Origin: Candidatus Gastranaerophilales bacterium
GTDB taxonomy: Bacteria > Cyanobacteriota > Vampirovibrionia > Gastranaerophilales > Gastranaerophilaceae
Direction of reading: 5' to 3'
Assembly: GCA_944324245.1 (NCBI GenBank)
Contig: CALUVO010000009.1
Span: 19,793-83,792, forward strand
DNA: 64,000 nucleotides
Each line of letters opens with the position of its first letter. The stretch's first letter is position 1. The notes beneath the pieces are model-generated. The model searched no databases and had not been told where the DNA came from. It was given only the letters and a program-made list of their open reading frames with translations. Below are positions 2,929-61,925 of the stretch, piece by piece. Both the position numbers and the translations under genes were made by a program.

Positions 2929-3814
2929 ACTTTCTTTGCTGTTTATTGTTCTATTTGCTTCAGTATTACCTGCTTTTGCTATCAATCTTGAGGATATTTC
3001 AGAGCCGCTTCCGCCGGCACGCCGTCTCGGTATAGGCAGCAGTCCGGAAAATCCTTATAAAGTTTCTGAGACAAGTAAAAAAGTTCAATCAAAAGAAGCT
3101 AACCTTGATAAAGAAGGTGAAGCTGTAAAAAACATTACATATGCTGATTTAAGTCTTAAAAAAATTGCGGAAGAAATAAGTTCGGATTCCGAACTGGATG
3201 CACAGGATGTACTTGCGGATTTTCAGCTTTTATGGGTTGGGGCTGCGCAAAACAGTGAAACAGTAAAGTTTATCGTATACAAACTCTCTAATCCTGATGA
3301 AGACAAACCTAATGAAAGTGTTGTAAAAAAGATTATTCAGCCTATTTCTACGGTAGGAAGCTTAGCCGGTATAGGAATGGGAAACCCGATTGCCGCTATT
3401 TCTTCTATTATGGGCAGCAGTGTTTTAGGTTCCATGTCTGTTGATGATAAAGACCTGAACTATAGATTTTCTAAAGTAAACGATGCTGACATGATTGTCT
3501 TAATCAGAAAAATAGAAGAATTGCAGAGAAAAATTGTTAACTACTATTTTGATTATATGACAGCAAGAGCCTTGCTTATACGCTCTGACGATATAGTTTC
3601 AAAAAGACGTAATGCTTTTATGAACGCTCAAAAAATGACTGATGAACAGGTGATTATGCTGGATGCATATTATAGAGAAGCCTTAAATAAGCAAAGCAAG
3701 CTGCGTTCTGATTTCCTTGCAAAACGTTCGGCGCTTGAGCAGATAGTCGGTATGGAAACACTTGCCCAGTTTGAAGATCTTATTACGCAGCGTGAAGCAA
3801 AAGATAAAAAATAA
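2915..3814 (+). CDS. Secreted hypothetical protein, paralog B
   Basis: Overlaps the previous gene by 14 nt. It has the same three-part architecture: 'FQLLWVGAAQNSETVKFIVYKLSNP', 'VGSLAGIGMGNPIAAISSIMGSSVLGS' and a coiled coil. Confidence 0.6.
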   Translation: MLKNKLSLLFIVLFASVLPAFAINLEDISEPLPPARRLGIGSSPENPYKVSETSKKVQSKEANLDKEGEAVKNITYADLSLKKIAEEISSDSELDAQDVLADFQLLWVGAAQNSETVKFIVYKLSNPDEDKPNESVVKKIIQPISTVGSLAGIGMGNPIAAISSIMGSSVLGSMSVDDKDLNYRFSKVNDADMIVLIRKIEELQRKIVNYYFDYMTARALLIRSDDIVSKRRNAFMNAQKMTDEQVIMLDAYYREALNKQSKLRSDFLAKRSALEQIVGMETLAQFEDLITQREAKDKK

Positions 3815-6990: not shown

Positions 6991-8565
6991 ATGAGTTCAG
7001 CCGAAACACGAACAGTAACAGGGAATCCATTGCCGCAAATGGATACCCGACAAACACCAATATGGCTAATAGCAATAAGCATTTTATTGCCGACCTCGTT
7101 TGCTATGCTTGCAACATCAGCTACAAACGTAGCTATCCCTTATATTGCAGGATACTTCGGGTCTACCGTAGATGAAGCCAACTGGGTAATTACCATATAT
7201 ATGATTGCAAATGCAATTCTTATCCCTTTAACAGGATGGCTTGAAAACTATATGGGGCGGGTACTTTTCTTAAAAGTTTTTATTACTATTTTTACAATAG
7301 GTTCCCTTATCTGTGCTATGGCAAGCAGTTTGAATATGCTTGTTGCAGGAAGATTGATACAGGGTATAGGTGGAGGGCCTATGATGCCTATATCTCAGGC
7401 AATTTTGATAGCCAGTTTCCCTTATAATAAAAGGGGGCAGGCAATGGCATTGTTCGGGCTTGCCGTTATGGTGTTTTCTATTATGGGGCCTACATTCGGC
7501 GGGTTTATCGTGGACAATTCTGCGTGGCAGTGGATTTATCTTGCTAATATACCTGTCGGGATTTTTTCTGTTGTGCTTGTTCATTGCAATATTGCTGAGC
7601 TCAAAAACAGAGTTAAGCCTGATAAGGTTGATTATGTCGGATTTATAGCACTTGTTTTATGGCTTATGTCAATGCAGATTGTTCTTGATAAAGGACAGCA
7701 GTACAACTGGTTTGATTGTACGTGGATTGCGTGGCTTGCAGGTATATCTTTGTTTTCTTTTATATTCTTTATTGTATGGGAATTGGAATACCACAGTCCG
7801 ATTGTTAACCTGAGAATTTTTAAAGATAAAAACTTCTTTATAGGAACAATACTAGGTTCTTCTGTAAATATGATTATTTATGTAACGATTGTACTTTTAC
7901 CGAGTTTTTTACAGAGTCTTATGGGCTACAATGCCATGCTAAGCGGCCTGGCGCTGGCACCCCGTGTATTTTCCTGTATAATAATGCTTTTGATTATTGG
8001 TCCTATGGTAGAATTTCTGGATAACAGGATACTTATTGCATCGGGATTCTTTTTCTTAGGTTTGTCTACAATATTTTATGCAAATTTGAATCTGGGAATA
8101 TCTTTTCAATTTGTAGTTGTACCGAATGTACTTATGGGAGTTGGGGTAATTCTTGTCTTTATCCCTGTATCAGGGTTGGTTCTCGGTACTTTGCCAAAAT
8201 CAGAATTGTCTAACGGAGCCGGTCTGCACAGTCTTTGCAAGTGTGTAATGACGGCTTTTGTTGTGTCGATGTCATCAACTCTCGTTGCAAGGCTGTCTCA
8301 GGTTCACCAGACATATCTTGTAGAAAACCTGTCTAATTTTAATCTGATTTTTCAAAACAGGTTGCACTCAATGGCAGGACATTTTATGTCGTTTGCGAGC
8401 AATTACGCAACTCATAAAGCAGGCGGATTGTTGTACAAGCAATTACTCTCACAGTCAAAATTGATGGCTTATGTGGATGTATTTGAAATTTTTGCACTTA
8501 TAGCGTTTATACTTATACCTTTCGGATTTTTATTGAAAGTACCGAAAAGAGATGGAAAAATGTAA
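6991..8565 (+). CDS. MFS transporter, DHA2 (EmrB/QacA) family
   Basis: 524 aa and about 14 hydrophobic segments. Contains the motif 'GRLIQGIGGGPMMP'. Lies immediately downstream of the HlyD gene. Confidence 0.85.
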   Translation: MSSAETRTVTGNPLPQMDTRQTPIWLIAISILLPTSFAMLATSATNVAIPYIAGYFGSTVDEANWVITIYMIANAILIPLTGWLENYMGRVLFLKVFITIFTIGSLICAMASSLNMLVAGRLIQGIGGGPMMPISQAILIASFPYNKRGQAMALFGLAVMVFSIMGPTFGGFIVDNSAWQWIYLANIPVGIFSVVLVHCNIAELKNRVKPDKVDYVGFIALVLWLMSMQIVLDKGQQYNWFDCTWIAWLAGISLFSFIFFIVWELEYHSPIVNLRIFKDKNFFIGTILGSSVNMIIYVTIVLLPSFLQSLMGYNAMLSGLALAPRVFSCIIMLLIIGPMVEFLDNRILIASGFFFLGLSTIFYANLNLGISFQFVVVPNVLMGVGVILVFIPVSGLVLGTLPKSELSNGAGLHSLCKCVMTAFVVSMSSTLVARLSQVHQTYLVENLSNFNLIFQNRLHSMAGHFMSFASNYATHKAGGLLYKQLLSQSKLMAYVDVFEIFALIAFILIPFGFLLKVPKRDGKM

Positions 8566-31296: not shown

Positions 31297-31458
31297 ATTT
31301 ATTCTCCTTTTGTTGGGTAGCTAAATCTTTTTGAATTGATAATATTTATTATGTAAGAATTTATAAAGAAAACAATCTTTTTTATTTGTTCATTTTTTCT
31401 TTTTGTTGCGATGCAAAAAGAAAAAACGAACCAAAAAAGAAAAACACGCTAATTAAAA

Positions 31459-31540
31459 ACAGACTCTAATGCATTTATCTCCAAAATTTTCTAAACGCTT
31501 ACGCTAACGAAAATTTTGTTCGTAAATACAAAGAGTCTGT
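31459..31540. repeat. Nested long hairpin in an ORF-free gap
   Basis: acagactct (31459-31467) pairs with agagtctgt (31532-31540). It encloses aaaattttc (31483-31491) paired with gaaaatttt (31509-31517). Confidence 0.6.
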
Positions 31541-31608
31541 AATTAAAGTTACAACGGCAAAGCCGTAGACACTATGTGTGCAGCTTCGCTGCAAATTGTT
31601 TTATGTTT

Positions 31609-31934
31609 TACAGATAATTGTTAAAAAAAGACCTTTGCGTAGTGAATTACAGAAAGTTGCATATACAACATCAAACGAGGTACTGTCCGAGGCACGGGGA
31701 AATTATTGCGGATTTTGCGTAGGCTGTAGCGAAGCGAAACGCCGAAGTAACGCCGAAATAGTGAGCGATGTTTTGTTCTGCAAAACAATGCGAACGACTT
31801 GAAGGCGTGAAGCAATAATCCAAGACTATAAATATTTTTATTAAAGCAATTTTGACGTGCCGAGTTGCCGAGTCGGGTATATGCTACTTTCTGTTTGAAC
31901 GAAGCAGCAGGTCGACTTTTAATAATTATCTGTA
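31609..31934. repeat. 326-bp element bounded by imperfect ~60-bp terminal inverted repeats (MITE-like, or a long hairpin RNA)
   Basis: 31609-31626 versus rc 31917-31934 (17/18). 31649-31666 versus rc 31877-31894 (17/18). The interior is G/C-enriched and has no credible ORF. Confidence 0.6.
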
Positions 31935-32002
31935 TAAATTTCTGTCGGATTGTCAATGTACGATTGCTTAATGAATTACCCTAAAAATAGCCTATATCGA
32001 GA

Positions 32003-37705: not shown

Positions 37706-37784
37706 TTTCATATATTCTAGTGTCGCGGTTGCCGCCGGCTCACCTATTTAAATGACACTTAAAATTTTTGAAATTACCACTTTT
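37695..37784. terminator. 90-nt extended hairpin between convergent genes, with a GC-rich repeat core
   Basis: A perfect 16-bp stem: aaaagtggtaatttca (37695-37710) with tgaaattaccactttt (37769-37784). The inner stem is agtgtc/gacact. The core 'tctagtgtcgcggttgccgccggc' recurs at 42155. Confidence 0.6.
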
Positions 37785-41754: not shown

Positions 41755-42147
41755 ATGAAAAAATTTTTATTCTTTAATGTTAGTTTAGTATTGTGTTTTT
41801 GGGGGATTTGGGGTGCAAATATCGTACTATCAGCCTCAATGTTTGATGAAAACGGGTCATATTCAGGAAGCTGGAAACAAATGACAAATGTTACATCTTC
41901 CTCCACCTCTTATTCAAATAGATACAAAAGCAGTGATTATTCTTCTTCTGCATGGTATGCCAACAATAGGAAACAACAGGCGCAAAGACAGAATAGCTCC
42001 TTTTCAAATGAAAATTATGTGCAAACAAACGCTGTGCCTTTCAGATATAATACGCTAAACTATACAAGGATAAGGAAAGTAAAAGGCGGTTACGGTGACT
42101 ATAATGCGAAATGCTCAGATATAGGTGATGTAAGCTTTTGTCATTAA
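41755..42147 (+). CDS. Small secreted Ser/Asn/Tyr-rich hypothetical protein
   Basis: Has a signal peptide and low-complexity sequence. No domain recognised. Confidence 0.45.
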   Translation: MKKFLFFNVSLVLCFWGIWGANIVLSASMFDENGSYSGSWKQMTNVTSSSTSYSNRYKSSDYSSSAWYANNRKQQAQRQNSSFSNENYVQTNAVPFRYNTLNYTRIRKVKGGYGDYNAKCSDIGDVSFCH

Positions 42148-42154
42148 TATCTAA

Positions 42155-42555
42155 TCTAGTGTTGCAGTTGCCGCCTGCGGTCTTGAAATCAGACGTTCGG
42201 AAAAGCGTGGATTCCCCTCACAAGGGGCGTTCCCTCTCTTCGTTCATTCTGCCCCGTCTGATTCCGCTTTCTTGAAATTTCTTCTCGCTCGTTGCTGCCG
42301 CTGACTATGCTTTGCTACCGTCTGCTTGCATTCGCTCACCGGGTTTCACCCGTCCGGAATTTCGCTGACCGCAGCCGGCACCTGCTCACTTTTGAATTCT
42401 TTTGCCTCTGTGTCGAACAAAAGTTGACTAAATGTCATATTTTAAGAGAGGGGCTAAGTGAGATACGAAGTATCTCCGTGCAGTATAAAAATTGGAAACT
42501 GTCTGAGCGTGAAGAAAATCCAAGACGTAGTCGGAGTCAGTTGACGATATGAAAT
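42155..42555. repeat. GC-enriched, multi-hairpin, ORF-free composite repeat region
   Basis: The 14-bp outer stem 42167-42182 / 42367-42381 encloses hairpins at 42188/42255, 42214-42227 and 42340-42352. It shares blocks with 37716-37739, 61618-61645 (inverted) and 31805-31826. Confidence 0.6.
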
Positions 42556-42816
42556 TTATCCGAAAAATCTGTTTATAAAATCAGTAATACCCGCTTGTTT
42601 TTTGTTTTCACTGTTATTGAGGCACTGCATAATATCAGTTTCCGCATCATAATTATCAGAATATATGCTACAAGACTTTTCTGTATGTGCGCCCGTAGCG
42701 TCAAGCAACGGTGCAGAATCTTTTGGCATATACACACCTCGTGACTTGCTTACATAATTATATTTGGCAAACGGATTGTAATAGTTTGCTGGATTTATCA
42801 TATTATTGCTGCTCAT
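42556..42816 (-). CDS. Small hypothetical protein with N-terminal NPFAKY motif
   Basis: 86-aa ORF. The motif is shared with the 43360-43548 product. Confidence 0.4.
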   Translation of the reverse strand: MSSNNMINPANYYNPFAKYNYVSKSRGVYMPKDSAPLLDATGAHTEKSCSIYSDNYDAETDIMQCLNNSENKKQAGITDFINRFFG

Positions 42817-52298: not shown

Positions 52299-52991
52299 TT
52301 ATGAATTAGCAAATTCTTCTTTTCTTAATTCAGTATTGTCTTCTTCATCATCAATATAATCATATCGACACATTTGTGCAACAGTCTTTCCCCATTGCTC
52401 AATGATTTCATCCTGCGGTAATTCATAGGAAATAGGTTTTCCTATTTGTACTATTACTTTGGCTCCAAAAGGAATCCAATTATATTTTTCACATCCCGTT
52501 ATAGAAACAGGAAGAATATCCCATTTTGCCGCTTTTGCAATTACTGCAAAGCCTTTATTTATTTTTTCAATGGTTTTGTTTCTTCTTATTCCGCCCTGAG
52601 GGAAAATACCCAGAAGCCAGTTAGTTTTGTACAAATCCTTTACTGTTTTTATTGTTGAAACTTCTAATTTTTCTCTGTTTACAGCAAAAGCTCCCAGCCA
52701 ATCCATATTGAAACGGAATAAAAATCCGTCATCTTCAAACAGTTCTTTCTTTGCCATATATGCAATAGGCTTTCTGACTGCTACTGATACCAGAAAAGGG
52801 TCAAGATAGGAGATATGGTTCGCTGCACAAATAAACTTTTTATTTTTAGGAATATTTTCTCTTCCTTTTATTTCAAATTTGTAAAAGAACCAGAAAACCG
52901 GTATGGCAACAAAAATGCACCATAATGCCTGATAGAGCATTCTTATAATATTAAATTCTTTTGCATATCTTCTTGCATAATTCCTTGTCAT
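52299..52991 (-). CDS. plsC: 1-acyl-sn-glycerol-3-phosphate acyltransferase
   Basis: 'AANHISYLDP' (HX4D) and 'IFPQGG'. Confidence 0.8.
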   Translation of the reverse strand: MTRNYARRYAKEFNIIRMLYQALWCIFVAIPVFWFFYKFEIKGRENIPKNKKFICAANHISYLDPFLVSVAVRKPIAYMAKKELFEDDGFLFRFNMDWLGAFAVNREKLEVSTIKTVKDLYKTNWLLGIFPQGGIRRNKTIEKINKGFAVIAKAAKWDILPVSITGCEKYNWIPFGAKVIVQIGKPISYELPQDEIIEQWGKTVAQMCRYDYIDDEEDNTELRKEEFANS

Positions 52992-53018: not shown

Positions 53019-53657
53019 TTATTCTAAAACATACTCTTTGCCGGTTAAATCTGAAATAGTACTGCACCATTGCTGCATCATATCATCTATGTTGTCGCTG
53101 TATGGTATCATTTTCCCGATTTTGATTGTGAGATTTGAAGAAAACGGCCATTTAGGCTTTTTGTCTGAGCCAATAATTGCAACCGGCAGTATACCTGTTT
53201 TTGTGGCTTTTGCAAAAGAAGCAAAGCCTTTTGATATTTTTTCTATTCTGTCACTGGAATCTCTGGTTCCTTGAGGGAAAAGCCCAAGCATCCATTTTGT
53301 ATTTTTTATGTTCAATGCTGTTTTTATTGTGGATACTTCTACTTTATCTCTTCTGACAGCAAAGGCACCGCAAAAATCCATCAATAATCTGGAAAAGAAT
53401 TTTTCGAACAATTCTTCTTTTGCCATAAATGCTATAGGTAAATCAAGAGCAAATGGCAGCAAAAAAGGGTCTCTGCCGGAGATATGGTTTGCTGCAACAA
53501 TAAATTTATCTTCATCAGGAATATTTTCTTTGCCTTCTACGTGGTAATTGTACATTAATTTTATGTATGCACCAAAAAATATATTGCACGTTACCCATTG
53601 GAATATAGTCCTGAATTTATTATAAATTTTTGCATCTCTTTTTGAAAAAGTACTCAT
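53019..53657 (-). CDS. plsC: 1-acyl-sn-glycerol-3-phosphate acyltransferase, tandem paralog
   Basis: 'AANHISGRDP' and 'LFPQGT'. ATG 53657 gives the same N-terminal length as the paralog; the ORF track start is TTG 53708. Confidence 0.75.
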   Translation of the reverse strand: MSTFSKRDAKIYNKFRTIFQWVTCNIFFGAYIKLMYNYHVEGKENIPDEDKFIVAANHISGRDPFLLPFALDLPIAFMAKEELFEKFFSRLLMDFCGAFAVRRDKVEVSTIKTALNIKNTKWMLGLFPQGTRDSSDRIEKISKGFASFAKATKTGILPVAIIGSDKKPKWPFSSNLTIKIGKMIPYSDNIDDMMQQWCSTISDLTGKEYVLE

Positions 53658-53740
53658 TTCTGTATTTTCCCCAACAATTTCTTTAAGCACTTTATAGTAT
53701 TGTAGCAAAAATAAATTGTTAAATCCAATAAGCCTGCTGG

Positions 53741-59609: not shown

Positions 59610-60245
59610 ATGCAAATCAATGCAATTTCTGCAGGTGCAGTTTCACGTGGCAACAATGTGTCTTTTAACGGTCAATGGAAGAAAAGAGCTGTTTATAACG
59701 GTGCTGATTTTCATATCTATAACAAAAATGAGTATATTCCTGACAAAAATGAAACAGCGTATGACATTTCAAATGCGTGGAAAAAAGAAACAGGTTTGTA
59801 TCCTATTGATTGGGTAAAAAAAGTTAATCCGTACAACCAAATAAAAAAAATCCCATACGGAGGAGAAATAGAAACAGAATATTCTATTAAAGGCAAAAAA
59901 TATATGCCTCTTGATGTATTAAAAGCTTCTGCGCTGCAAAAGTTAGAAAAGATAGAGAAAGAGGAATCCCTGAATAAAGAAGATAACCGTTTGGATGCAT
60001 TATTTGATCTTGCAGAGATTTCTAATATGGAAGATGATAAAAAAGCTGCAAAAGATTATGAGTCAGAAATAGTAAAAATATATGTAAACCAGAATTCTTT
60101 GAGACTCAAAAATGCTGTTGTAAGCAAGATGAATGAATATAAAGAAAATTGGGGCAGTGCTGTTTGGGCAAAAGATGTATATTCTTCAGGTCCCAAAAAT
60201 CTATATGAAGATTCTGATAAAATGATTAAAGATTATAAAGCATAG
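59610..60245 (+). CDS. Hypothetical protein (211 aa)
   Basis: RBS 'ggaagagagg' upstream. N-terminus 'MQINAISAG..GNNVSFNG'. No domain recognised. Confidence 0.5.
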   Translation: MQINAISAGAVSRGNNVSFNGQWKKRAVYNGADFHIYNKNEYIPDKNETAYDISNAWKKETGLYPIDWVKKVNPYNQIKKIPYGGEIETEYSIKGKKYMPLDVLKASALQKLEKIEKEESLNKEDNRLDALFDLAEISNMEDDKKAAKDYESEIVKIYVNQNSLRLKNAVVSKMNEYKENWGSAVWAKDVYSSGPKNLYEDSDKMIKDYKA

Positions 60246-60250
60246 GAATT

Positions 60251-60304
60251 ATAAACTATAGGTAAAAAGCGGAGGATATCCTCCGCTTTTTACCTATAGT
60301 TTAT
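60251..60304. terminator. Perfect 54-bp palindrome (27-bp arms, no loop) with a bidirectional terminator core
   Basis: 'ataaactataggtaaaaagcggaggat|atcctccgctttttacctatagtttat'. Confidence 0.8.
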
Positions 60305-60325: not shown

Positions 60326-61141
60326 TTATTCATTGTTCTGCTCTTGTGTCTTCTCGTTTATCTTCAGAGTTCTTCTGATAAATTGCGCAGCAAGATCGTT
60401 AATAATAAGAAACTGATAAAAAAGTACAAAAGGTATTGCCAGTATACCAACTATAGTAAGTGTGAGGATAAAATTAACTATATTAGCCATTATTGTAATA
60501 GCAAATATGAGTAACAAATAAATAAAATATTCAAAAAAGTTTTTGGTAATAAATTTTTTTATAAGAGAAAAATTGAAAAAAGAAGCAAATTTTAGATTTG
60601 TGCAAAAAGCTAAACTGGATGAACTTATTAAAACTACAGCAAAAATAAATATAATCAGTGCTAAAAAAGTCATAAATATAAGACTTAATATAATAGCAGC
60701 TTTATTCTGCACATGTATTGTTATACAAAAGAAAATCAGAGGTGCCATCCAAATTATAAAAAGTACAATGCAGTATATACAAATAGCAATATTCGACTTT
60801 AATCCGAGCCAGAACATATCAGCCCAGCCGGTCCAATCCGGCAGAGGCGCATCCGGTCTAAATATTCGCAAATTAATATTTCTTGCAAAATACCCGCTTG
60901 AAAATATACCGAGTACAATGCAGATAATGAGTAGAACAAAGCCTGCAATCAGTGCATGTGGCAGCAGGTGTATGTACTGTTTTAGCTGTTCTGATTTTAA
61001 ATCGCTTATATATCTCAAAGCATAGTTTAAGATATTCATAACAGCAACGCACACCATAAACAAAGATCCGATTATCAATTTCTTTTTGCAATCCTTGTCT
61101 TTGAACATATAGCTGATTGCATTATCTATATTTAAAAACAT
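60326..61141 (-). CDS. Polytopic membrane protein (DUF4013-like)
   Basis: The N-terminus 'NAISYMFKDKDCKKKLIIGSLF' resembles DUF4013 starts. About 6 TM segments. Confidence 0.45.
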   Translation of the reverse strand: MFLNIDNAISYMFKDKDCKKKLIIGSLFMVCVAVMNILNYALRYISDLKSEQLKQYIHLLPHALIAGFVLLIICIVLGIFSSGYFARNINLRIFRPDAPLPDWTGWADMFWLGLKSNIAICIYCIVLFIIWMAPLIFFCITIHVQNKAAIILSLIFMTFLALIIFIFAVVLISSSSLAFCTNLKFASFFNFSLIKKFITKNFFEYFIYLLLIFAITIMANIVNFILTLTIVGILAIPFVLFYQFLIINDLAAQFIRRTLKINEKTQEQNNE

Positions 61142-61486: not shown

Positions 61487-61562
61487 TGGGGCGTCGCCAA
61501 GTGGTAAGGCAGCTGGTTTTGGTCCAGCCATTCCGGAGGTTCGAATCCTTCCGCCCCAGCCA
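61487..61562 (+). tRNA. tRNA-Gln (anticodon TTG), CCA encoded
   Basis: Acceptor TGGGGCG/CGCCCCA, anticodon arm GCTGG-TTTTGGT-CCAGC, T arm GGAGG-TTCGAAT-CCTTC, discriminator G. Collinear with the E. coli tRNA-Gln layout. Confidence 0.9.
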
Positions 61563-61588
61563 AAAAGCTCTCACATGAGGGCTTTTTT
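61562..61588. terminator. Terminator hairpin after tRNA-Gln
   Basis: 'aaaaagctctc acat gagggctttttt'. Confidence 0.7.
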
Positions 61589-61592
61589 ATTG

Positions 61593-61925
61593 CGGAAGGA
61601 TTCGAACAAGTTCTCATCCCCTCTCGTAAATATGACATTTAGTCATATTTACTCGGCAGAGTGCCTCAGCCAAAAAAAGCTCTCGCGAGAGGGCTTTTTG
61701 TTTTTACGAAAGGATTCGAACAAGTTCTCATCCCCTCTCGTAAATATGACATTTAGTCATATTTACTCGGCAGAGTGCCCCAGCCAAAAAAAGCTCTCGC
61801 GAGAGGGCTTTTTGTTTTTACGAAAGGATTCTTCGATTCCCCTCTCGAAAAACGATACTCAATCGTTTTTCTCGGCAGATTGCCCCAGAAAAATAAAAAG
61901 GTCTACATTGTAGACCTTTTTATTT
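61593..61925 (+). repeat. Three tandem 114-bp units, each with an inverted T-arm fragment, a variable hairpin, a copy of the tRNA-Gln 3' end and a terminator
   Basis: Units are at 61593, 61707 and 61821. Units 1 and 2 are nearly identical. Unit 3 has the same flanks but different hairpin and terminator stems. Confidence 0.85.

Follow-up and report, generated by a model that had tools for sequence, protein, structure and literature searches.

What is the gene-free stretch of about 400 bases near 42 kb of the window (the whole 64,000-nucleotide stretch of DNA that was analysed), and why does it share short blocks with three other places that lack open reading frames? The preliminary description, made from the letters alone, had seen in these blocks a dispersed modular family of intergenic repeats comparable to BOX or BIME elements. 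This view is borne out: all four loci are members of a single repeat system, dispersed, modular and mosaic in the manner of BOX, BIME and NIME, further copies are present in large numbers in related genomes, and orthologous intergenic sites, once compared, differ in content. The 42-kb stretch itself is a decayed patchwork of small hairpin-forming repeats, with at least six modules (M1, T, an inverted U, a core, hairpin A and the end of an element E), every one of which is carried again by related genomes. We regard it as reasonably probable that these modules form a lineage-specific family of nested, non-autonomous hairpin repeats of the Gastranaerophilales (Melainabacteria), and that the 42-kb locus is a partly decayed nest of them.

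The 42-kb locus and related sites in the window

The features of the 42-kb locus are the following:

42148..42175, plus strand: M1 (TATCTAATCTAGTGTTGCAGTTGCCGCC), its first base 1 after the stop codon of a 130-aa gene
42180..42267, plus strand: T, a hairpin-like insert with terminal inverted repeats GTCTTGAAATCAGACG ... CGTCTGATTCCGC
42268..42365, minus strand: inverted U-family module, reading GCGAAATTCCGGACGGGTGAAACCCGG ... GAGAAGAAATTTCAAGAAA on the minus strand
42366..42385, plus strand: closing arm, complementary to 42164-42182 (17/19 bases; self-match and MFE fold)
42407..42451, minus strand: degenerate core, CCTCTC-TTAAAATATGAC-ATTTA-GTCAACTTTTGT-TCGACACAGA (covariance model)
42452..42492, minus strand: hairpin A, before the core, TATACTGCACG-GAGATAC-TTCG-GTATCTC-ACTTAGCC
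42500..42526, plus strand: 3'-terminal fragment of a second U-family module (GTCTGAGCGTGAAGAAAATCCAAGAC; nine-copy alignment)
42527..42557, plus strand: 3' terminus of element E (GTAGTCGGAGTCAGTTGACGATATGAAATTT), touching the stop codon of a minus-strand 86-aa ORF

Elsewhere in the window, the same system is represented by:

31700..31826, plus strand: complete U-family module (GCGGATTTTGCGTAGG ... GGCGTGAAGCAATAATCCAAGAC)
37710..37739, plus strand: solo M1, 5 nt past the stop codon of a DUF486 gene
61487..61562, plus strand: tRNA-Gln(UUG) gene, CCA encoded (ARAGORN, Rfam)
61563..61672, plus strand: trailer unit 1 of tRNA-Gln, core at 61620-61662 (62.2 bits)
61673..61786, plus strand: trailer unit 2, core at 61734-61776, 96% identical to unit 1, with a terminator
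61787..61888, plus strand: trailer unit 3, core at 61841-61881 (35.7 bits)

The M1 28-mer matches 37710-37736 and eight loci outside the window at 88-100%, namely seven genome loci (L062, L021, L034, L070, L060, L014, L007) and L088, the orthologous site of a relative. The similarity noticed earlier between 42155 and 37716 is real (42149-42178 against 37710-37739, 25/30, E 0.01), and the blocks as first delimited do begin 8 and 11 nt past a stop codon. The suggestion that the 37.7-kb copy is the 42-kb element minus 190 bp had to be abandoned, since 'gccgccggc' is part of the M1 consensus (L034, L062) and no deletion is needed; this site is a solo 30-nt M1, which resembles L034 at 80% over 54 nt. 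T has homologues in L026, L044, L064, L040 and L062, and its absence from a coreless copy of E in L062 identifies T as an insertion there. The inverted U module is matched by blastn in L064, L029 and L013 and takes its place in an alignment of nine U copies, all of which have their termini in common. A third match, between 42507-42526 and 31805-31826, had been put forward as weak and perhaps due to chance. Within the window the similarity is indeed not above chance; the match is nevertheless real, both sites being the conserved 3' terminus (...GCGTGAAG..AATCCAAGA) of U-family modules. The 42500..42526 fragment is identical at 21/21 positions to the U end in L040, the segment 42488-42557 matches L064 at 93% (E 5e-19), and 31708-31825 matches L021 at 80% over 128 nt (E 4e-23), with L043 as a further match. 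In the MFE fold, the arm at 42366..42385 closes a long stem that encloses T and U; its self-match with 42164-42182 is not significant alone (E 1.4). Hairpin A also adjoins cores in L054, L034, L013, L070, L021 and L062. Element E is a dispersed element of ~178 nt with two complete and identical copies in L062, and its 3' terminus gives 12 matches in nine sources (the window and eight other loci) at 88-100%. A protein-coding remnant was considered and rejected: Pfam gives no match for the 86-aa ORF within the locus, and the modules occur in both orientations and in non-coding settings.

The four loci had also been described as rich in G and C. Most 300-nt bins nearby have a GC content of about 0.25-0.38. 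Three of the loci exceed this (42000-42599 with 0.43, 61500-61799 with 0.46 and 31500-31799 with 0.40), whereas the 37.7-kb site is not visibly enriched at 300-nt resolution.

The core module and its family

The block of 27/29 bases first noticed between the 42-kb locus and the tRNA-Gln trailer extends to 39 nt at 85% identity (42420-42458 on the minus strand against 61613-61650 and 61727-61764, E 7e-5 with the window as target), and it is the top of a 45-nt core module, built as CCTCTC, a 9-12-bp hairpin and TCGGCAGAGT. The proposal that the shared modules include sequence derived from tRNA ends is not upheld for this block, which is the apical part of an independent hairpin module: cores in tRNA trailers have tRNA-derived pieces at their flanks, whereas the 42-kb copy has none. 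The flanks of the core are invariant and at least five different hairpins are found between them. In the stem, 89.9% of cells are paired and both sides change in 7/12 pairs, a covariation equalled in 0/500 shuffles. The flanks are not complementary, the core thus being without terminal inverted repeats; a closing stem CCTCTC/GCAGAG was tried, in which only CTCT/AGAG can pair, and is unsupported because changes in one flank are not matched in the other.

Four cores lie in the window. Each of the three tRNA-Gln trailer units has one, and the fourth is the degenerate copy at 42407-42451 on the minus strand, the best-preserved piece of the 42-kb stretch. This copy scores 39.8 bits (E 6e-8, core covariance model R1), with six stem pairs broken and the 3' flank damaged. 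It is most likely a dead copy, because it lacks tRNA flanks, lies inside other repeats and has lost pairing. An exact 22-base pattern scan located the core at 71 bacterial genome loci, mostly in Gastranaerophilales metagenome-assembled genomes (42/71 from named Gastranaerophilales or Gastranaerophilaceae), and several genomes have 4-8 loci. The genome set comprises 105 cores, window included, after removal of two false regex matches on the minus strand of the window, and copies in genome-derived loci exceed 100. A second hairpin variant, that of trailer unit 3 (CGATACTCAATCG), recurs in >120 metagenome contigs, and the core is present in hundreds of copies. As loci were collected by core search, copy number per genome and the tRNA-linked share are not an unbiased census.

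A stem kept by compensatory changes is what would be expected of structured non-coding RNA genes or parts of them (e.g., tRNA-like decoys or a multi-copy sRNA family) conserved for RNA function. Compatible with this are the strong fold of element E (-54.6 kcal/mol for 175 nt), the folding energy of the 42-kb region, modestly better than that of shuffles (z -2.9 for the minus and -1.75 for the plus strand), and the duplicated promoter-like sequence that precedes 5'-side units. However, taken relative to tRNA transcription, downstream cores are sense and upstream cores antisense, and therefore the same RNA could not be made in both settings. Moreover, the first terminator stands before the 3' units, modules occur in both orientations and in shuffled order, and the 42-kb core has lost six stem pairs. 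With Rfam 15 at gathering scores, only tRNAs reach threshold in the window and 18 loci; searches of the 42-kb locus, the trailer and L062 that were relaxed to E up to 1-10 likewise gave tRNAs alone, anything else being absent or scoring far too low. An RNA function as the reason for conservation is accordingly considered very unlikely. A tRNA or tRNA-like fold on the minus strand of the trailer units was also sought: ARAGORN reports none, and by inspection no acceptor stem is possible.

Association with tRNA and tmRNA genes

A general preference of the repeats for gene 3' ends, one of the expectations at the outset, is not found; the strongest positional rule, not noticed in the preliminary description, is adjacency to the ends of tRNA and tmRNA genes. 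Within the genome set, 48/105 cores lie <=450 nt from such a gene, and all 48 obey a single polarity, 20 being downstream on the same strand and 28 upstream on the opposite strand. In an independent metagenome set 84/92 cores follow this rule. For the eight exceptions the nearest tRNA is probably not the partner of the core, the flank being unlike the nearest tRNA in every such case shown. Most cores with judgeable surroundings adjoin a tRNA or tmRNA gene with one polarity, and the core is found at >15 different tRNA species as well as in non-tRNA repeats, in many genomes.

At its TCGGCAGAGT end the core runs into a duplicated piece of tRNA terminus, usually nt 1-11 or nt 63-73, and the CCTCTC end faces a hairpin built from an arm of the neighbouring tRNA. 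The duplicated piece ranges from 6 to about 45 nt and is most commonly exactly 11 nt. In the genome set, most tRNA contexts (Met, Leu, Val in L016, His, tmRNA) have the junction at nt 11 or nt 63, and 52/75 junctions of the metagenome set are 11-12 nt from the tRNA end; exceptions are nt 67 for Gln, nt 6-7 or 19-20 for Pro, nt 18 for Val and nt 26 for Ile. Before the junction only a weak T-N-C is seen (our own reading), and no conserved 4-5-nt target was found. The real tRNA is left intact beside the units, which are ~105-135 nt long and form tandem arrays; those on the 3' side bring a terminator with them, those on the 5' side a promoter-like spacer. In the tRNA-Gln trailer, unit 1 contains a terminator, tRNA nt 53-68 in reverse complement, nt 53-62 as a direct copy, the core and a copy of nt 67-76, and unit 3 ends with tRNA nt 67-73 and another terminator. 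To judge from what is known to us, this tRNA-end rule looks new.

Direct repeats of tRNA or tmRNA 3' ends around inserted DNA are the classic integrase signature, and here too a direct repeat of the tRNA end flanks the insert with the gene restored. The units could thus be remnants of site-specific integration into tRNA and tmRNA genes, i.e., small integrative elements or decayed att regions that entered via an integrase and left tRNA-end direct repeats, with the core as a recombination site gaining and losing cassettes. Single-unit loci (L056, L032) agree with this, as they duplicate the tRNA end only and the insert brings the terminator. So do the cargo genes 3' of tRNA-Gln that have a half core on one side and a full core on the other (parDE in L071, a further gene in L049) and three independent breakpoints located exactly between the hairpin and TCGGCAGAGT (L071/L017, L049, L021). 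Against it, no integrase is found next to any unit or elsewhere in the collected loci, the units are very short, tRNA 5' ends show a mirror-image form, and the duplicated block starts at nt 63 with the hairpin in the stem, which is not an anticodon-loop or T-loop crossover. Cores also occur far from tRNAs within other repeats, and an exact-pattern scan of viral contigs for a phage origin gave no match. Integration remnants are on this evidence a rather unlikely explanation.

The order of the unit parts (direct tRNA end, inverted tRNA arm, direct partial copy) recalls yet another process, in which no dedicated element takes part: template switching or fold-back during replication at natural hairpins such as tRNA arms and terminators would create direct-inverted-direct duplications like tandem inversion duplications, the core being passively co-amplified. 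The A-run/hairpin/T-run terminators and the palindromic T loop at the junctions, and the tandem arrays, would fit. However, such a process accounts poorly for the same core with invariant flanks at so many tRNA species and in non-tRNA repeats of many genomes, for a junction position fixed at 11 nt and for a core that is never within the inverted copy; we give it only a slight probability.

Nesting, probable mobility and cargo

The favoured explanation, a family of nested hairpin repeats, supposes that its modules are mobile or duplicative DNA, as comparisons suggest. Combinations of M1, T, U, V, core, hairpin A and E vary across intergenic DNA (window, L013, L020, L026, L034, L040, L062 and L064 compared). 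Filled and empty sites were compared for the core (two sites, both in E), for T and for U; they reveal no target-site duplication and the replacement of 5-8 nt. The site orthologous to the 42-kb locus is empty in L091, L092 and L093 and has other content in L088, L089 and L090, of which L089 and L090 encode an identical 129-aa protein. The tRNA-Gln array has two or three units within the species, a difference that assembly collapse could explain. Cargo between cores includes the toxin-antitoxin pair parDE in L071 and a 1.6-kb segment in L015.

The proteins that might move the modules were sought in the collected loci. No transposase, recombinase or reverse transcriptase was found near the copies or in ~590 kb by a crude motif scan and neighbour clustering: scans of the ORFs for tyrosine/serine recombinase, Y1 HUH and IS110 motifs found none, and among 545 ORFs of the genome loci no family occurs in more than five loci. 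Of three YxDD matches examined further, one is a PLD protein, one a TPR protein and one is without a family match. Nor do the collected loci contain a parent autonomous element with the same ends.

Comparison with known repeat systems

Nothing on this system was found in searches of the literature on repeats of Gastranaerophilales, on small dispersed repeats of cyanobacteria and on hairpin repeats linked to tRNAs. The system shares features with several others. As in BOX- and BIME-like mosaics, several short intergenic modules vary in order and orientation. The proteobacterial REP/BIME/REPIN elements, moved by RAYT (Y1 HUH) transposases, are likewise imperfect palindromes outside genes, short and highly repeated, which have conserved flanks that are not palindromic, combine into mosaics and keep their stems by compensatory change, and the core is such a 20-40-nt imperfect palindrome, extragenic and in many copies. 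Their enzyme is encoded elsewhere in the genome, and we infer an enzyme in trans for the core family as well. Unlike them, the core has no GTAG/CGTC tag at the palindrome end, its flanks being CCTCTC and TCGGCAGAGT (GTAG is seen nowhere but in the opening bases of the non-palindromic 3' terminus of E); the cores of one array all have the same orientation, without inverted doublets; and no RAYT was found by the crude HUH/Y motif scan of ~590 kb. REPs, for their part, are not known to be tied to the ends of tRNA genes or to come with duplicated pieces of tRNA.

Heterocystous cyanobacteria, of a related phylum, reportedly contain nested mini-elements, the small dispersed repeats (SDR) attributed to Elhai et al. 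2008. Like the modules reported here, these are very small, nest in each other and in larger hairpin-rich intergenic elements, extend stem-loops upon insertion and involve no target duplication and no known enzyme; their sequences differ and the core modules are longer (45 nt). To our knowledge, SDRs are neither tied strictly to the ends of tRNA and tmRNA genes nor joined to them at 11 nt. PATEs, derived from IS200/IS605 and moved by single-strand, hairpin-guided transposition, resemble the core in having no terminal inverted repeats, no target duplication, one end at which ~10 conserved nt follow a hairpin and an apparent preference for foldable DNA. They differ in that the two hairpins of a core unit are unrelated in sequence, only the weak T-N-C and no conserved 4-5-nt target was found, no Y1 transposase is seen and core orientation follows the tRNA, not the direction of replication.

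Integrase att sites in tRNA and tmRNA genes (Williams 2002 classes), with their tandem cis-mobilisable remnants, share the duplicated end, the intact gene, the accumulation of tandem inserts and the accessory cargo at the site. Core units, however, are about 110 nt, lack an integrase, have a mirror-image 5' form, place a hairpin in the stem of the displaced copy and contain an inverted tRNA-arm copy. Of the terminal inverted repeats that mark MITEs, T (GAAATCAGAC/GTCTGATTTC) and U (GGATTTT/AAAATCC) each show a pair and the core, with its non-complementary flanks, shows none; a target-site duplication of fixed length is found for none of the core, T and U. Modular mosaics of short intergenic repeats are also known as Neisseria NIME/dRS3 arrays, Correia elements, pneumococcal BOX and Rickettsia RPE, of which RPE inserts into structured RNA genes and dRS3 serves as a recombination target. 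Their sequences are unrelated to the modules described here, and none is known to have the tRNA-end polarity and junction rule.

A possible mechanism and its implications

The core beside partial copies of tRNA ends points to an undescribed kind of structure-guided mobile DNA. Within the preferred reading of a nested, non-autonomous family, modules would insert into one another and into stem-loop regions without target-site duplications, and a structure-directed DNA transaction would place the core by reading a folded tRNA gene, perhaps as a single-stranded cloverleaf or a cruciform, symmetrically from either end. The enzyme would be encoded elsewhere and work in trans; arrays would then lengthen or shorten via unequal recombination, and the cores may be recombination hot spots able to trap cargo. 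It counts against this explanation that no single mechanism could be derived for the core together with both tRNA pieces, the inverted arm copy and the direct partial one. Transposon target-site duplication, hAT-type P-nucleotide, tandem-inversion-duplication and RNA/reverse-transcription models were considered, none of which yields the direct copy, the inverted copy and the core together, and the last is contradicted by the duplication of untranscribed promoter sequence in L055.

A more specific version is advanced only tentatively, namely that a tRNA or tmRNA gene is recognised from either end and a hairpin element joined 11 nt in, i.e., one helical turn from the end of the tRNA body. The intact gene would be regenerated, the element would supply a terminator or promoter, and the segment complementary to the neighbouring tRNA arm would be the specificity determinant. 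The Met-3' and His-3' units would be of the same element lineage; both tRNAs have identical nt 52-63. That the inverted tRNA piece (Q) might be an antisense guide is kept as a lead only, since it crosses the junction in 3'-side units and fails to do so in several 5'-side ones (Met, Val). If the more specific version is true, the core family would be a miniature mobile element of a new, tRNA-targeting class, served by a new kind of enzyme or guide. The geometry itself offers a clean, testable signature of the putative structure-reading enzyme, in three parts: the same polarity on either side of the gene, a junction 11 nt from its end and an intact tRNA. A partner protein, if found, could reveal a new way in which mobile DNA targets safe sites beside essential genes.

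Gastranaerophilales, the gut relatives of cyanobacteria, are common bacteria of gut and rumen for which metagenome bins are almost the only source, and we know of no study of their non-coding DNA. The repeat system provides a sequence tag for this lineage and marks sites of rearrangement and cargo gain. Its modules also break short-read assemblies, and because of them Gastranaerophilales assemblies break at tRNA genes.

Modular repeats of the 42-kb locus

The repeats are nested hairpin modules that occur across the lineage, insert without target duplication and vary in their occupancy of orthologous sites; one of them, the core, follows a strict tRNA-end geometry. The region 42148-42557, without a convincing ORF, is bounded on each side by the stop codon of a convergent gene: on the left a 130-aa gene, which ends at 42147, and on the right an 86-aa ORF on the minus strand with its stop codon from 42556. 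Sensitive blastn of this region against the whole window gave exactly two non-self matches above chance: 42420-42458 (minus strand) with the two long tRNA-Gln trailer units (39 nt, 85%, E 7e-5), and 42149-42178 with 37710-37739 (25/30, E 0.01). Both similarities had been reported in the preliminary description, whose finding of a dispersed modular repeat family is correct, the class being of a known kind. The third proposed similarity, at 31805, is missing from the blastn result; as nine aligned U copies share their termini (GCGGATTTTS...AAATCCAAGA), this match nevertheless represents two U modules that are homologous at their 3' ends. The G/C enrichment described for all four loci is seen at the 42-kb and 61.6-kb loci (0.43-0.46) and at 31.5-31.8 kb (0.40), most nearby 300-nt bins having about 0.25-0.38. 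Compared with shuffles, the folding energy of the 42-kb region shows a modest gain (z -2.9 and -1.75).

Repeat modules identified in the window (bit scores from the core covariance model)
42148-42175: M1
42180-42267: T, with terminal inverted repeats
42268-42365: U-family module, inverted orientation
42366-42385: arm complementary to M1
42407-42451, minus strand: degenerate core, 39.8 bits
42452-42492: hairpin-A module, which precedes cores in seven other loci
42500-42526: second U module, fragment
42527-42557: 3' terminus of element E
37706-37758: solo M1, matching locus L034 (80% over 54 nt)
31700-31826: complete U-family module (80% over 128 nt with locus L021, E 4e-23)
61620-61662: core, 62 bits
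61734-61776: core, 62 bits
61841-61881: core with variant hairpin, 35.7 bits

All parts of the 42-kb locus recur elsewhere as homologues, whose order and orientation vary. Element E is a dispersed repeat of about 178 nt whose fold consists of two long hairpins (-54.6 kcal/mol); no Rfam family matches it. One locus (L062) contains a pair of 100% identical copies, 3.6 kb apart and set in unrelated flanks (3508-3682 and 7100-7274). Other identities were rejected for the repeats: a known RNA family, since Rfam returned only tRNAs even at permissive E-values; a protein-coding remnant, the ORF inside the 42-kb locus having no protein-family match; and a phage origin, with no match among viral contigs.

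The U module at 31.8 kb is held in a 706-nt ORF-free region (31297-32002) that also contains a 29-nt inverted repeat (31606-31634/31909-31937) and a 28-nt one (31378-31405/31414-31441). DNA homologous to the left part of this region directly follows a 129-aa gene in contig L089, which indicates that the region is itself rearranged or mobile.

The core module and its distribution

The block shared by the 42-kb locus and the trailer is the top of a 45-nt module consisting of CCTCTC, a 9-12-bp stem, a 5-nt loop and then TCGGCAGAGT. In a scan of bacterial genomes, one to a species, CCTCTC-N(2-7)-ATATGACATTTAGTCA matched 71 loci, 42 of them named Candidatus Gastranaerophilales or Gastranaerophilaceae and nearly all others from unnamed MAGs of gut, rumen or faecal origin; a Muribaculaceae-labelled MAG accounts for two loci and a Clostridia-labelled MAG for one. 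Several genomes supplied 4-8 of the loci each, and many matches lie at contig ends, as expected of a repeat that breaks assemblies. A search with the flanks only revealed at least five other hairpins between the same flanks (CGATACTTAATCG, GCAACACCGTTGC, AATTCACCGAATT, ATGCCACCGGCAT and AGTGACATTTAGTCACT).

The alignment of 92 pattern matches from the 71 genome loci, six contigs of the window's species (L001-L006) and the window showed the shared block as the top of this 45-nt module. Across 24 distinct copies, the stem is paired in 89.9% of cells and both sides have changed in 7 of 12 pairs; neither shuffles nor register shifts came near these values. Searched with a covariance model, filters off, the window contains four cores and none at 37.7 kb or 31.8 kb. 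In the minus-strand core at 42407-42451, six pairs are broken and the 3' flank is damaged.

Polarity of cores at tRNA ends

The loci can be read as one architecture in two mirror forms. In the downstream form, found 3' of a tRNA or tmRNA gene with the core on the same strand, the order is tRNA, terminator, reverse complement of nt ~52-68, direct copy of nt ~50-56/62, core, tRNA-end copy and flank, the last direct copy starting at nt 63 (nt 67 in Gln). In the upstream form, located 5' of the gene with the core on the opposite strand, the 5' flank with tRNA nt 1-11 is followed by the core, here reading ACTCTGCCGA-hairpin-GAGAGG, D-arm pieces (one direct, one inverted), a promoter-like spacer and the intact tRNA. 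The Met-3' and His-3' units have terminator and inner hairpin in common, and nt 52-63 of these two tRNAs are identical.

The genome-derived loci and the window gave 107 regex hits, and removal of two false ones (the minus strand of the window's trailer) left 105 cores. A tRNA or tmRNA gene is no more than 450 nt away from 48 of them, and the polarity rule holds for all 48: 20 are downstream and on the strand of the gene, 28 upstream and on the other strand. Of the remaining cores, 38 are too near a locus edge for judgement and 19 have no nearby tRNA.

tRNA piece fused to ...GCAGAGT
nt 1-11: Met, Leu(CAG), Leu(GAG) and one Val lineage
nt 63-73, the 11 nt that precede CCA: Met, His, Leu(CAA) and tmRNA
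Exceptions: Gln, nt 67-73; Pro, nt 1-6/7; Val, nt 1-18

To test the rule independently, metagenome contigs were scanned for the CGATACTTAATCG hairpin variant, which occurs in more than 120 of them. The loci fetched contain 149 cores, 92 near a tRNA, and 84 of these 92 obey the polarity rule. For the eight others, the nearest tRNA is probably not the partner; among the cases listed, none has a flank that matches this tRNA. The junction lies 11-12 nt from the tRNA end in 52/75 cases; other classes fall in the D loop (nt 19-20) or the 5' strand of the anticodon stem (Ile, nt 26). Glu, Lys, Leu(UAG), Leu(UAA) and Pro(UGG) are new tRNAs among the 52.

Site occupancy, rearrangement and cargo

Filled and empty sites were obtained by comparing the coreless E of L062 with E copies in three other loci (L026, L064 and L040). 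No target duplication accompanies the two cores, T or U at these sites; instead, 5-8 nt have been replaced. A separate case is L021 (~340-760), where the core that follows tRNA-Leu(CAA) is interrupted by ~330 nt of inserted DNA, which carries a U module and replaces the hairpin's right arm, with the right-hand break exactly before TCGGCAGAGT.

Contigs encoding the identical 130-aa protein are from human-gut metagenome assemblies, and each has the same 408-nt spacer. Contigs carrying orthologues of this gene differ in what follows it: an AT-rich spacer of 110-134 nt without repeats and then gyrB (L091, L092 and L093); an inverted E terminus directly after the stop codon and then gyrB (L090); a homologue of the window's 31.4-kb non-coding region, after the same 129-aa protein as in L090 (L089); or a terminator, M1 and T, and then the contig end (L088). 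The 42-kb site is thus empty in some relatives and differently filled in others, and in the window it is a synteny breakpoint: here the repeat nest, the 86-aa ORF and a mini-RNase III gene stand in place of the gyrB of L091 and L093.

Within the window's species, the trailer has two units in contigs L081 and L083 and three in L082 and the window, a difference that could be assembly collapse. Of ten short-read contigs of this species (L078-L087), seven stop within the tRNA-Gln gene, six of these in the T arm or beyond it, which fits tangling of the assembly graph by the trailer's inverted T-arm copy.

Other loci carry cargo. In L071 (5002-5545; also in L017), a half core and a full core downstream of tRNA-Gln enclose a parD/parE toxin-antitoxin pair that has a promoter region of its own, and in L049 other cargo follows a half core downstream of the same tRNA. 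In L015 (1775-3442), a 1.6-kb segment between 95-nt direct repeats that include cores looks like a cassette; its only ORF (220 aa) belongs to no known family.

Possible mechanism and relation to known systems

In the way it works, the system resembles REP/BIME, NIME and the nested small dispersed repeats known from cyanobacteria. It lacks defining features of REP/REPIN elements (a GTAG tag, inverted doublets) and of classical MITEs (a fixed target duplication, a parent element). We could not find a description of the tRNA-end polarity and 11-nt junction rule observed in two independent data sets. A single RNA function for the core is unlikely, because it is sense downstream of tRNAs and antisense upstream and because a terminator precedes the 3' units.

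The mirror forms would coincide if each DNA strand were read inward from the gene end: either strand would then present ~11 nt of acceptor-stem-side sequence, ACTCTGCCGA-hairpin-GAGAGG and a hairpin built on the folded strand's first arm. Since nt 1 and nt 73 are unmarked in double-stranded sequence, placement is probably guided by structure, e.g., a single-stranded cloverleaf or a cruciform. Untranscribed promoter sequence within the duplication at locus L055 argues against an RNA intermediate. The repeats are not flanked by an enzyme of their own, as no protein recurs beside them and no recombinase, HUH or reverse-transcriptase motif was found in about 590 kb of locus sequence; the enzyme would have to work in trans. 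Unequal recombination may then alter the arrays, and cores may serve as breakpoints for cargo. We could not reduce direct copy, inverted copy and core to any single known reaction covering all three, and models of an integrase remnant and of template switching both remain as rivals; the present loci lack the defining features of integrase att sites, as an integrase is absent and the hairpin lies within the displaced copy.

Other repeats in the window

A perfect 54-nt palindrome (60251-60304; 27+27 nt, no spacer) between the convergent genes 59610-60245 (plus strand) and 60326-61141 (minus strand) is probably a bidirectional terminator. A 104-nt direct repeat (52780-52883/53449-53552, 70% identity) falls in adjacent minus-strand ORFs, 52299-52991 and 53019-53708, which are probably tandem paralogues. 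Near the window start, two 32-nt direct repeats with 97% identity lie 51 nt apart (102-184).
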